This document shows positions 1-5,117 of a stretch of DNA of 12,609 nucleotides, one piece after another. Below the pieces are notes generated by a model. That model was not told where the DNA came from and ran no database searches. It saw nothing but the letters and a program-made list of their open reading frames with translations. Made by a program: the position numbers and the translations under genes. Within the stretch, counting starts at the first letter, position 1, and every line of letters starts with the position of its first letter. Origin of the DNA: Opitutus sp. GAS368 (GTDB lineage Bacteria > Verrucomicrobiota > Verrucomicrobiia > Opitutales > Opitutaceae); assembly GCA_945861645.1 (NCBI GenBank), contig CAMAVZ010000049.1, positions 1-12,609 on the forward strand, read 5' to 3'.

Positions 1-31
1 CCTATGAACTCAAAACTAATTACAATGAGTA

Positions 32-66
32 AGACGGCGTTAATTCAGAAACGTTGAATTTATTTT
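32..66 (-). promoter_or_regulatory. Putative ECF-sigma-type promoter B (AAC-N16-CGTCT), firing leftwards out of the window
   Basis: Minus strand reads AAAATAAATTC-AAC-GTTTCTGAATTAACGC-CGTCT. It is 24/35 identical without gaps to the copy at 235-269, with identity concentrated in the A-tract, AACGTTT and CGTCT. AAC/CGT with ~16 nt spacing is the typical ECF sigma pattern. Confidence 0.5.
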
Positions 67-85
67 AAAAAAAATTCAGCCAGCT

Positions 86-125
86 AAAATATTAAGGGGC
101 CCCTCTTGCGAGCGGCCCCTTAATA
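86..125 (-). terminator. Intrinsic terminator-like hairpin
   Basis: Perfect 12-bp inverted repeat TATTAAGGGGCC (90-101) / GGCCCCTTAATA (114-125), then one mismatch and 3 more bp. The loop reads GCAA (GNRA) on the minus strand, and the stem is followed by TTTT only on the minus strand. Confidence 0.75.
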
Positions 126-185
126 ACCTAAAACACCTAAAACACCTAAAACACCTAAAACACCTAAAACACCTAAAACACCTAA
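126..185. repeat. Tandem repeat (ACCTAAAAC)x6 plus partial ACCTAA
   Basis: Six exact 9-nt units start at 126, 135, 144, 153, 162 and 171, with a partial unit at 180-185. TAATAAC flanks both sides (121-127, 183-189). Confidence 0.97.
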
Positions 186-234
186 TAACTACCAACAATG
201 TTTCGCTATGAACGATTACTGTTATCACGGGGAT

Positions 235-269
235 AGACGCAGTTTAGCGGAAAACGTTAGAATTATTTT
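235..269 (-). promoter_or_regulatory. Putative ECF-sigma-type promoter A (AAC-N16-CGTCT)
   Basis: Minus strand reads AAAATAATTCT-AAC-GTTTTCCGCTAAACTG-CGTCT. A second copy lies at 32-66. Confidence 0.5.
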
Positions 270-448: not shown

Positions 449-1633
449 TCACAAATGAATTTCTGCTGGCAGAACCAAACCAGCATGGGCCTTGGTCGGC
501 GAAGCCTTGAGTGGATACCGAAATAGCTTACCCTCAAAATTCTTAAAGATCACTTCATCATCGGTGATCGCCTGCACGTAATCAGGATTGATCGGCACTT
601 TGCCGCCGCCGCCAGGAGCATCGATGACATATTGGGGTACCGCGTAACCAGTCGTATGCCCACGGAGTGCACGGATAATTTCAATGCCCTTGCGCACATC
701 CACTTTGAAGTGGGCCCCGCCGGTGATCAGGTCCATTTGGTAAATATAATAAGGCCGCACCCGCATGCGGAGCAAGCGGTGCACGAGCGCCTGCATCACC
801 TCGGCGTCATCGTTGATGCCTTTCAGCAATACGCTCTGGTTACCCAGCGGCACCCCCGCAAAAGAAAGTCGCTCGCACGCTGCTTTTAATTCCTGGGTCG
901 CTTCCTTGGGGTGATTGATGTGCAGGCTCATCCAGATCGGGCCATGCTTCTTAAAAATTTCCGCCAACTCTGGGGTAATGCGCTGCGGTAAGAAAACTGG
1001 GATGCGTGACCCAATACGAATAAACTCCACGTGCTTGATGGCGCGCAGCCGGCCGAGCAAGTGATCGAGCTTCTTATCCGACAACAAAAGGGGATCCCCA
1101 CCCGACAAGAGCACATCGCGCACCTCGGAATGCGCCTCAATGTAACGGAGCGCCTGCTCGTATTCAGGATGAAAATTATAGTCCTGCGCGTTACTCACGA
1201 GCCGACTCCGCGTACAATAGCGACAATAAGCCGCACAGCGATCGGTCACTAAAAACAACACCCGATCGGGATAGCGATGCACGAGACCGGGCACGGGAGA
1301 ATGTTCGTCCTCGCCCAGAGAATCTAACATCTCCCCAGAAGAAACCACCATCTCATCGCTTCGTGGAATGACCTGCTTACGAATAGGACAGTGGGGGTCA
1401 GTCCGATCGATGAGGTTGAAAAAATAAGGTGTGATCGCGAGCGCGAGCTTCTCTTTGGCGAAAAGACAGCCGGCTTTCTCCTCGGGCGTCAGCGTTAGGT
1501 AACGCTCCAATTGCTCGATCGTGGTCAACCGATTCTTCAGCTGCCAAGACCAGTCCTGCCAATCAGATTCAGGAATATGTTGCCACAGCCCCTGGCCTTC
1601 AAACCAAGTGAAGCGGTCGTCAATGTAGGCCAT
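449..1633 (-). CDS. kamA: KamA-family radical SAM protein (lysine 2,3-aminomutase)
   Basis: 394 aa. Contains the radical SAM CxxxCxxC motif (CAAYCRYC), HRYPDRVL, LLSGGDP, RIGSR, NQSVLLKG and the PLP-lysine motif DAPGGGGK. Asp is retained in YQMDL and VIDAP, as in lysine-specific enzymes. Confidence 0.9.
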   Translation of the reverse strand: MAYIDDRFTWFEGQGLWQHIPESDWQDWSWQLKNRLTTIEQLERYLTLTPEEKAGCLFAKEKLALAITPYFFNLIDRTDPHCPIRKQVIPRSDEMVVSSGEMLDSLGEDEHSPVPGLVHRYPDRVLFLVTDRCAAYCRYCTRSRLVSNAQDYNFHPEYEQALRYIEAHSEVRDVLLSGGDPLLLSDKKLDHLLGRLRAIKHVEFIRIGSRIPVFLPQRITPELAEIFKKHGPIWMSLHINHPKEATQELKAACERLSFAGVPLGNQSVLLKGINDDAEVMQALVHRLLRMRVRPYYIYQMDLITGGAHFKVDVRKGIEIIRALRGHTTGYAVPQYVIDAPGGGGKVPINPDYVQAITDDEVIFKNFEGKLFRYPLKASPTKAHAGLVLPAEIHL

Positions 1634-4164: not shown

Positions 4165-4971
4165 TCAAGCGCCTAGCCTGAAAAAATCCCGGGCATTTTG
4201 CGTGGTCACCGCCGCCAACTGCTCGGGGCTCACCCCAAACATTTCGGCACAATAGTCGGCCGTGTCCCGCAAATAGGCCGGCTCATTGGGTTTCCCGCGA
4301 TGCGGCATGGGCGTGAGGAAAGGAGCATCCGTCTCGATCATCAACCGCTCCAAGCCCTGTAACCGAGCGGCCGCCCGGACATTCTCTGCTTTTTTATAGG
4401 TGATCACGCCCGTGAATGAACCATAGGCCCCGCGCTGCACCAGCTCAGCCATTTCCGTCGGCCCTTCGCTAAAACAATGAAAAACGACCCGGCGCCAATC
4501 GACGCCAGCGGTCTCAATCATTTGGACACACTCCGGAAACGCCCCGCGTGAATGCACTACGACCGGACAACTGAGCGCCTTCACCACCGCCAACTGCTCG
4601 GCGAACGCTGACTGCTGCCAACTGAAAACCTTCGTCGCCTCGATTGGTTCTTGCGGCAGATGAAATCGGTCGAGCCCAATTTCCCCCAGCGCCACCGGCC
4701 CAGGTGCACTCGACCCACTCCAAAACGGCCTTAATTGGGCAACCCGCTCAGCCCAATCCGCCCCCACGTTACAGGGATGTAAGCCCACGGAATAACACAC
4801 CACCCCTGGATGCTGCTGAGCTAAATCACGGTACAATCCCCAATCATCAGTATCTGTGCCAATAGCCACCAATTGCGCTACCCCAGCAGCTCGCGCGCGA
4901 TCTAGAACTGCCGGCAACTCGCCACTGCGGACGAATGCATCGAGATGAGTATGCGTATCGATTAAGCTCAT
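4165..4971 (-). CDS. tatD: TatD-family metal-dependent hydrolase/DNase
   Basis: 268 aa. Motifs IDTHTH, GLHP, GEIGLD, VVHSR, FHCFS, IETDAPFL and NEPA. Confidence 0.95.
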   Translation of the reverse strand: MSLIDTHTHLDAFVRSGELPAVLDRARAAGVAQLVAIGTDTDDWGLYRDLAQQHPGVVCYSVGLHPCNVGADWAERVAQLRPFWSGSSAPGPVALGEIGLDRFHLPQEPIEATKVFSWQQSAFAEQLAVVKALSCPVVVHSRGAFPECVQMIETAGVDWRRVVFHCFSEGPTEMAELVQRGAYGSFTGVITYKKAENVRAAARLQGLERLMIETDAPFLTPMPHRGKPNEPAYLRDTADYCAEMFGVSPEQLAAVTTQNARDFFRLGA

Positions 4972-5024
4972 AGATTGATTGCGATCAGACGAAAGGTCGA
5001 TGCTCAGCCGATGACATCATTAAA

Positions 5025-5052
5025 TAAACCTTAAACCCTAAATCTTAAAACT
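5025..5052. repeat. Degenerate heptamer tandem TAAACCT TAAACCC TAAATCT TAAAACT
   Basis: Four adjacent TAAAnCY units, read directly from the sequence upstream of tatD. Confidence 0.7.
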
Positions 5053-5117
5053 ATTCCCCCCTGCTTTCTCCGCGTCCGCTGCGTTTCACTTGAGTTGTTT
5101 AAGATAAAAGTGAGCCT

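Follow-up and report, generated by a model that had tools for sequence, protein, structure and literature searches.

Two tandem sibling small-RNA genes of Opitutus sp. GAS368 and their family in the Opitutales, with outer-membrane receptor mRNAs as candidate targets

The DNA considered here, referred to as the window, comprises the first 12,609 nucleotides (nt) of contig CAMAVZ010000049.1 (C49) from Opitutus sp. GAS368 (assembly GCA_945861645.1). The minus strand of its positions 1–66 very probably carries the promoter and the 5′ end of a genuine, conserved small-RNA (sRNA) gene, termed unit 2, which lies directly downstream of the terminator of a sibling gene of the same nature, unit 1. As judged from sequence and predicted structure, both units belong to a previously undescribed sRNA family of the order Opitutales (Verrucomicrobiota). 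Its members are assembled from four elements, namely an A/T-rich stretch followed by the promoter boxes TT(G/C)A(A/G)CGTTT-N12-CGTCTATC (i.e. AAC/AGC-N16-CGTCT), an optional 5′ hairpin that long forms possess and unit 2 has lost, an unstructured G/U-rich stretch with GGUUUGCUUGGUGUUAGGUC invariant in Opitutaceae, and a GC-rich intrinsic terminator. The family probably tunes the production of outer-membrane nutrient receptors, and we regard the complete scenario of tandem sibling sRNAs, a promoter of the extracytoplasmic function (ECF) type and receptor mRNAs as targets as reasonably likely.

The initial annotation had described a repeated promoter motif together with an 8-mer and had interpreted them as a tandem of paralogous sRNA genes kept by selection rather than recently duplicated. 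The repeat exists as described. Window positions 32–66 and 235–269 agree in 24 of 35 ungapped positions and have the blocks AGACG, AAACGTT and TTATTTT (plus strand) in common, compared to 20/35 for the next best 35-mer on either strand of the window; the resemblance of the two promoter blocks is not a matter of chance. The 8-mer CTATGAAC (plus strand) is confined within the window to the sites 2–9 and 206–213, and on the minus strand, where it reads GTTCATAG, it is separated from the preceding CGTCT by 22 nt (unit 2) and 21 nt (unit 1). Genome-wide, the GTTCATAG/CTATGAAC word was counted at 25 sites on both strands versus about 70 expected from length alone. A covariance model of the family (see below) matched the window at 75–266(−) with 55.9 bits and at 1–63(−) with 29.5 bits (E 1.7e-4), the 3′ end of the latter match falling off the window edge.

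Position 1 of the window is the start of C49, and contig C16 ends in a 100% copy of window positions 1–149 (G000:C16:45412-45560), which supplied about 1500 nt to the left of the window (stretch L002). C16 terminates inside the 9-nt repeat of unit 1 described below, and strain variation in the repeat number probably broke the assembly between the two contigs. The join is real, because a matching order is found in two other genomes. In L025, a metagenome-assembled genome of a close relative, a lysine-2,3-aminomutase (LAM)-like radical-SAM gene is followed by unit 1, unit 2, a thiamine pyrophosphate (TPP) riboswitch and a TonB receptor gene, and G082 displays the same order with one sRNA unit. 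Across the junction, unit 2 gives a full-length match to the covariance model (106.4 bits, C16:45346-45474(−)). Its promoter (28–63, minus strand) consists of the A/T-rich stretch, the −35 box TTCAACGTTT with AAC at 55–53, a 16-nt spacer and the −10 box CGTCT at 36–32, and can be aligned to those of 127 homologous units. The transcript is predicted to start such that its first ca. 25 nt occupy window positions 25 to 1 (minus strand), and the RNA would continue on C16 (L002 1500 to about 1444) through a GU-rich seed, a hairpin and a U-tract to a total length of about 85 nt. After the promoter (63–28), the minus strand reads GUAAUUAG, UUUUGAGUUCAUAGG, which ends at window position 1, and GUUUGCUUGGUGUUAGGUC. 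The seed on C16 is GGTTTGCTTGGTGTTAGGTC, followed by a GC hairpin and a T-tract; the terminator hairpin is formed by CAUGCAGGGCGUCCC and GGGGCGCCCUUCAUG and succeeded by AUUUAU. In the fold of unit 2, a short form without the 5′ hairpin, the seed remains single-stranded and the only hairpin is that of the terminator (z −5.2). The GU-rich TTAGG-type sequence that had been predicted to follow GTTCATAGG is found directly there on the adjoining contig. A second terminator, likewise anticipated, is present, but it ends ca. 65 nt to the left of position 1 rather than 100–150 nt on. Further units to the left, which the initial annotation had considered possible, were not encountered in the C16 flank: the array ends at two, and a spacer, the TPP riboswitch and the TonB receptor gene come next.

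The 8-mer itself has to be judged differently. It had been proposed as a conserved seed-like word, but the conserved single-stranded word of the family is GGTTTGCTTGGTGTTAGGTC, and the two copies of GTTCATAG are non-homologous in the family alignments. The element GTTCATAGG of unit 2 (1–9, minus strand) aligns with the conserved GTTCTTACGG of the family just 5′ of the seed (alignments A2 and A3), and the GTTCATAG within it with the family element GTTCTTAC. In unit 1, GTTCATAG (206–213, minus strand) falls into the homologous counterpart of the long forms' 5′ hairpin and linker (CGTTCATAACGAAAC in L005 and L043). The large alignments correspondingly place GAGTTCATAGG of unit 2 on GTAGTTCTTACGG of the family and CGTTCATAGCG of unit 1 on the 5′ hairpin/linker, which reads CGTTCATAACG in L005 and L043. 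Owing to these differing alignment positions, the shared 8-mer was not inherited from one ancestral position. GTTCATAG may still act as a seed in pairing, given its complementarity to CUAUGAAC, a word located at the start codons of two TonB receptor genes. The pre-seed element takes the GTTCATAG form outside the own lineage as well, in a further short paralog of Oleiharenicola sp. Vm1 (L205; G101:C1 ~2861560-2861640, minus strand) that carries GTTCATAGTGTTTGCTTGGTGTTAGGG and then a hairpin.

Unit 1 is a diverged sibling, whose unusual feature within the family is a seed expanded by tandem repetition. Its promoter (231–266, minus strand) contains the −35 box TCTAACGTTT (AAC at 258–256), a 16-nt spacer and the −10 box CGTCT at 239–235, a layout also seen in L025. 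The predicted transcript of ca. 145 nt (85–228, minus strand, with ends deduced from promoter and terminator) comprises a 5′ region, the repeat-expanded seed and the terminator; the match at 75–266(−) rises from 55.9 bits with model R1 to 76.2 bits with model R2. Tandem Repeats Finder detected a perfect repeat of period 9 at 126–185 (minus strand; 6.7 copies, 100% matches, UUUUAGGUG in RNA sense), which is positioned on the seed columns of the family in the model alignment. The terminator hairpin TTAAGGGGCC...GGCCCCTTAA with an inner 3-bp stem (92–123, minus strand; sequence and fold) is followed by the T-tract UAUUUUAG (91–84, minus strand), and in L025 a change restores its single mismatched pair. 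At the equivalent place, the seed of L025 reads GGTGTTTTAGGTGTTTTGGTTA with about two copies of the 9-nt word, the canonical form being GGTTTGCTTGGTGTTAGGTCA, and contigs from two RNA libraries represent a variant that leaves the repeat array after about 2.5 copies. Since the copy number differs between the own genome (6.7), L025 (two) and the RNA-library variant (ca. 2.5), the array is, on this sequence comparison, a recent and strain-variable expansion of the family seed. Point changes in the seed of unit 1 would have generated a 9-nt direct repeat, which slippage then could have extended to 6.7 copies, and the multi-copy seed might offer several pairing sites per molecule. Unit 1 is an observable example of sRNA seed evolution through slippage. 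Longer matches in G035 and G085 were considered as further seed-repeat expansions and rejected, as they contain longer 5′ regions instead.

An initial DNA search revealed related units in three other genera with GTAGTTCTTACGGTTTGCTTGGTGTTAGGTC, a hairpin and TTCATGTTT in common. At least 117 loci in a collection of species-representative genomes contain the exact 20-mer GGTTTGCTTGGTGTTAGGTC; among the 80 matches listed, nearly all are titled Opitutaceae, Opitutales, Opitutia or Verrucomicrobia, and the taxa include Opitutaceae, Opitutus, Lacunisphaera, Oleiharenicola, Rariglobus, Nibricoccus and relatives. Among 101 family genomes, a BLAST-type search at the DNA level detected a match in 8 only and was too insensitive; therefore, covariance models were used, as the initial annotation had suggested. 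R1 was built from alignment A2 of 127 distinct units and R2 from 106 model-aligned matches; the BLAST-type matches L007, L008 and L010 were left out of the family, L007 sharing only terminator similarity. R2 matched 96 of the 101 Opitutaceae genomes sampled, 81 of the 84 of high quality and 61 of 63 genera, with one to five copies each, often in tandem. With unit 2 as a full-length match to a family of this extent, the interpretation as selected paralogous sRNA genes in tandem was borne out. R1 found members in 37 of 151 genomes sampled across the order, and in a sample of the phylum 22 of 151 genomes matched, all but one in Opitutales, the exception having two weak matches. Members in other Opitutales families keep the promoter, a GU-rich stretch of the GUUUGUAGUUUG type and the terminator, and the 20-mer is absent from them. 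In several of these families (L151-L157, L161, L162, L164, L168, L169), the sRNA gene adjoins rsmE, which encodes a 16S rRNA methyltransferase domain, and is frequently flanked on the opposite side by an MlaD gene, a synteny unlike that of Opitutaceae. The own genome holds four members, i.e. unit 2 (106.4 bits), unit 1 (55.9 bits), C4:80328-80448 (54.7 bits) and C10:3853-3971 (37.7 bits); elsewhere, arrays reach four units in G373 and four plus a further promoter in G077, and pairs or triplets are found in many other genomes. Rfam 15 gave no match in the window at E ≤ 1, and for nine loci with canonical units the sole overlapping row was SprD with 23.4 bits versus a gathering threshold of 100 (E 0.33). 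A full-text literature search for small RNAs of Opitutaceae, Opitutus and Verrucomicrobia retrieved no relevant work and none described for Opitutales. These RNAs are near-universal in Opitutaceae, a large family whose members degrade polysaccharides in freshwater, soil and gut, and their multiple copies, distinctive promoter and a 20-nt stretch invariant across genera make them an easy entry to riboregulation where Hfq was not found.

RNAalifold applied to a MAFFT alignment produced no useful structure; a structure drawn by hand was therefore adopted and put to the test. In a model-fitted alignment of 106 sequences, 91.4% of the cells are standard pairs compared to 66.3% after shuffling, all 22 pairs exhibit double-sided changes, and the covariation score of 0.572 (shuffled 0.197) was reached by none of 500 shuffles, whereby the fitting of the alignment to the structure favours the structure. 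Controls with slid partners paired at 42–53%. The 5′ hairpin is paired at 81% and the terminator helix at 97%, with double changes in all 12 terminator pairs, such that both predicted helices are well supported despite the structure-fitted alignment. When the four RNAs of the own genome were folded, the GU-rich stretch was unpaired in the centroid. In the long forms, which account for 101 of 128 units, the seed is separated from the −10 box by 56–63 nt; the remaining 27, including unit 2, are without the 5′ hairpin. A conserved open reading frame (ORF) was not seen in the unit alignment. Own promoter, non-coding body, GC hairpin with U-tract and variable neighbours are the features of trans-encoded sRNAs, and all of them are found here. 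In six runs recorded as RNA, 25–36% of the words sampled from the 650-nt flank are present, and contigs from four RNA-library runs, one per study, cover parts of the units. Some runs leave parts uncovered, at L002 1509 a contig of one study abuts that of another, and ends, strand and level are not readable from the contigs, which are compatible with transcription of the units.

The promoter boxes are present in 128 of 130 units and their A/T-rich stretch lies upstream. AAC, AGC or AAT is separated by exactly 16 nt from CGTCT in 120 of the 128, and within this layout C, T and T are invariant and G and C nearly so (114 and 125 of 128). A weight matrix built from 122 homologous units scored 30.4 bits at 63–28 (unit 2) and 25.3 bits at 266–231 (unit 1), which rank first and second across the 2.3-Mb genome; the C4 paralog ranks third. 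In four complete genomes the strict promoter pattern has seven matches, six of them at these sRNA genes, and neither this search nor a regular expression or the weight matrix on the own genome uncovered a protein-gene promoter with the motif. Simple sigma-70 and terminator scans flagged no minus-strand promoter or hairpin at either unit. The layout with AAC in the −35 box, CGT/GTC in the −10 box and ca. 16 nt between them resembles that of ECF promoters. According to PMC6648896 and PMC1804206, sigma-E of E. coli recognises GGAACTT(TT) and GTC(AAA), and its sRNA genes micA and rybB possess near-consensus boxes. On the basis of box sequence and spacing, we consider it fairly probable that the units are transcribed by an ECF (sigma-E-like) sigma factor. 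Twelve genes with sigma-70 region 2 are encoded in the own genome. An ECF sigma gene (172 aa) with a FecR/DUF4880 anti-sigma gene (L140 1902-3119; G000:C4, ~80729-81946) is arranged divergently from the C4 paralog at a distance of ca. 280 nt; as a conserved association this neighbourhood was rejected (2 of 37 loci, 24% identity), which leaves the pair as a candidate regulator only.

Concerning function, the GU-rich stretch would pair in trans with CA-rich translation-initiation regions, the main candidates being mRNAs of TonB-dependent receptors and other outer-membrane proteins with leaders of the type CUAACAC(AC)CU-AUG; pairing might occlude the start codon and thereby lower translation. Based on predicted complementarity, we see about an even chance that receptor or porin mRNAs are the main targets. 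Two Plug-domain receptor genes are among those with a start codon close to one of the best perfect 10-mer complements of unit 2. GTTCATAGG has its complement in ACCTATGAAC, which spans the start codon of the TonB receptor gene C21:30071 and is flanked by CCTAACACC on both sides. The receptor gene C43:7726-10479(−) has CCTAACACCAA at −34 and CTATGAAC at the ATG, and CGUUCAUAG of unit 1 is predicted to pair with CUAUGAACG at its start codon; the candidate pairing sequences in the leaders of C21:30071 and C43:7726-10479 are CUAACACC and CUAUGAAC. Of 18 Plug-domain receptor ORFs, 4 contain CTAACAC in the 40 nt preceding the ATG, versus 2 of 1483 other long ORFs (Fisher 2e-7), and the word ranks first among 140 permutations of its letters, the runner-up ACACCTA being part of the same leader. 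In the related genome G382, the nearest relative, the C21:30071 leader differs by three substitutions, all of which keep the pairing through G-U. In five other Opitutaceae genomes CCTAACACC is found at 23 sites, eight of them antisense to sRNA genes and one in a further paralog. Seven of the remaining 14 are located 9–20 nt upstream of an ATG and belong to three Plug receptors, a beta-barrel porin, a glycoside-hydrolase-like secreted protein, dnaN and nuoJ. The CCTAACACC site of L205 was discarded as a 17-nt target, as it represents another sRNA paralog on the opposite strand. The predicted duplexes span about −12 to +6 with z between −0.1 and −4.1 overall, those of unit 2 and of the C10 paralog reaching ca. 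−4 against shuffled targets. As separate observations, the leaders of the Plug-domain genes G000:C21:15934, C21:30061, C86:2061 and C43 have the CA-rich CTAACAC(AC)CT directly before the ATG in common, and CTATG is the start context in 7 of the 18 receptor genes listed.

Several observations weigh against this scenario. With respect to targets, the motif is absent in the leaders of the C21:30071 orthologues of G091 and G043 (80% and 76% identity), and in G382 CTAACAC is changed in two of three receptor leaders checked. Two of the four receptor leaders look paralogous, and the four CTAACAC cases are therefore not independent; moreover, gene starts were derived from ORFs and not from annotation. 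The energy ranking favours receptors weakly (Mann-Whitney p 0.007–0.28 for four RNAs), duplex energies being noisy for GU-rich RNA, and a pre-filtered duplex scan of the whole genome provided a continuous and uninformative energy distribution. The low count of CCTAACACC relative to the reversed control may originate from stop or rare codons within the word and not from selection, and no target is conserved enough to explain 20 nt invariant across many genera. With respect to the promoter, the cognate sigma factor was not identified; a regular-expression search and the weight matrix on the own genome detected no autoregulated sigma promoter with the motif, and an ECF gene is near only 2 of 37 inspected loci, these two ECF proteins being 24% identical. 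Finally, the RNA-library contigs may include DNA and extend over neighbouring sequence as well, and the transcript ends and strand are predicted ones.

Alternative explanations have to be considered at several levels. A chance resemblance, or a functionless and decaying recent duplication, might be read from the match of just 24/35 and the diverged sequence between the blocks; its probability is practically nil, since it is refuted by the full-length match of each unit to the family model, the covariation, the presence in 96/101 genomes and a related species that keeps both units with a compensatory hairpin change. The units might also act in cis, as leaders or attenuators of the TonB receptor operon that follows them, instead of being independent genes, given that in the own genome, G082 and L025 they are upstream of and co-directional with a riboswitch-controlled TonB receptor gene. 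Such a role is highly improbable, because every unit owns a promoter and a strong terminator with U-tract, the TPP riboswitch intervenes between unit 2 and the receptor gene, the neighbours vary (LAM-like gene, SIMPL, rsmE, MlaD, sulfatases), and copies exist both clustered, with two to four units side by side, and scattered over the genome. A more serious, though still unlikely, competitor of the ECF promoter is that a dedicated transcription factor, e.g. a response regulator, binds the boxes and acts together with a weak housekeeping promoter. It would account for the restriction of the motif to sRNA genes and its absence at any sigma gene, for the lack of an ECF gene as conserved neighbour and for the resemblance of the −35 box to TTGACA in its first four bases. 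CGTCTA, however, is devoid of A2 and T6 of TATAAT, the sigma-70 scan reported nothing on the minus strand at either unit, and AAC-N16-CGTC is the classic ECF layout close to GGAACTT/GTC of sigma-E. The strongest E. coli sigma-E promoters, too, belong to sRNA genes.

A different mode of action would result if the UUAGG/AGGU words served as protein decoys that titrate an RNA-binding protein, e.g. one with an RRM domain, as CsrB and RsmZ do with CsrA. These words are present once in unit 2, about seven times in unit 1 and two to four times in the C4 and C10 paralogs, and their number varies between paralogs and strains; the near-confinement of the promoter motif to these RNA genes likewise has a parallel in the promoter element of the GacA-controlled Rsm RNAs. 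The inventory of RNA-binding proteins also speaks for it: a search for Hfq family proteins in 41 Opitutaceae genomes (40 with a completeness of at least 95%) and in the own genome found none, CsrA family proteins were likewise not detected in the latter (84% complete), while RRM_1 proteins exist in 40 of the 41 family genomes, with two in the own genome (C3:50228-50437 and C6:8768-8977). By analogy, this picture matches the setting of the FopS/RbpB system of Bacteroides, where RbpB binds FopS sRNAs as reported in PMC11697453. The decoy function nevertheless appears rather doubtful. A protein site of 5 nt would not require the 20 contiguous nt that are unchanged in at least 117 loci, GUUUGUAGUUUG is retained in other Opitutales families often without UUAGG, and the enrichment of the seed complement at receptor start codons is not predicted by a pure decoy; the RRM proteins are putative partners. 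An extension that we regard as improbable and put forward as speculation combines both modes. Unit 1 would then be a multivalent decoy with a dose set by repeat number, its seven UUAGGUG sites titrating several receptor mRNAs or an RRM-type protein, and the family would form a central transporter switch under a dedicated ECF sigma factor with these RNAs as its principal output, acting post-transcriptionally on outer-membrane transporter synthesis in Hfq-less Verrucomicrobiota.

The Opitutales RNAs have counterparts in several established systems. OmrA and OmrB are adjacent siblings with a shared seed region and a diverged remainder that repress TonB-dependent receptors; they differ by OmpR control, Hfq dependence and unrelated sequence. 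GcvB shares the long, unstructured and conserved G/U-rich region that pairs with C/A-rich elements just upstream of start codons; it is, however, a single-copy, GcvA-activated and Hfq-dependent RNA with amino-acid transporter targets, and no Rfam match connects the Opitutales units with it. CsrB, RsmY and RsmZ likewise occur as several paralogs per genome with variable short-word number and a promoter element largely confined to RNA genes. The word here, however, is UUAGG/AGGUG in unstructured sequence (UUUUAGGUG) and not GGA in hairpin loops, and the own genome yielded no CsrA gene, which sets the units apart from this family. MicA, RybB and MicL (PMC1804206, PMC6648896) resemble the units in the near-consensus ECF-type promoter, the short RNA, the intrinsic terminator and the lowering of outer-membrane beta-barrel protein synthesis, here only proposed. 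They are Hfq-dependent, in contrast to a family in whose 41 genomes hfq was not found, carry the seed 5′-terminally, are encoded by single-copy genes instead of tandem families and have no sequence similarity as judged by Rfam. In Bacteroides thetaiotaomicron, 14 FopS paralogs repress SusC-like transporters by pairing adjacent to the start codon, which is counteracted by the RRM protein RbpB (PMC11697453). Common to FopS/GibS and the Opitutales RNAs are a paralogous sRNA family in a host without Hfq/CsrA but with small RRM proteins, pairing beside the start codon of SusC-like/TonB-dependent transporter mRNAs, here only predicted, and a polysaccharide-degrading host rich in TonB-dependent receptors. 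The Opitutales seed is internal, just 5′ of the terminator, whereas that of FopS is at the 5′ end, and an ECF-like promoter replaces the housekeeping type reported for FopS in another phylum; as judged from Rfam, which gave no match, a sequence relation is not known. The Opitutales RNAs resemble the sibling, the sigma-E-type, the GcvB-like GU-seed and the FopS-like kinds of sRNA and could be assigned to none of these families. If the receptor link is true, they would represent a second, independent paralogous sRNA family gating receptor translation after FopS of Bacteroides, here coupled to an ECF-type promoter.

The neighbourhood of the two units contains further elements. Upstream of unit 1, the LAM-like radical-SAM gene occupies 449–1633 (minus strand). 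About 230 nt past unit 2 and ca. 300 nt left of the window, contig C16 carries the TPP riboswitch (L002 1090-1203, minus strand; RF00059, 63.3 bits), followed by the Plug-domain TonB-dependent receptor gene. The position of the riboswitch ahead of the receptor gene suggests thiamine-regulated uptake, and the arrangement is also found in G082 and L025. Elsewhere in the window, at 5020–5055, an imperfect 7-nt repeat of TAAACCT with 3.6 copies, which had no match to the small-RNA models, is located in the leader region of a TatD-like gene (4165–4971, minus strand). This repeat is GU-rich on the minus strand (TTTAGGGTTTAAGGTTTA), and the start context of the TatD-like gene is CTATGAGC.

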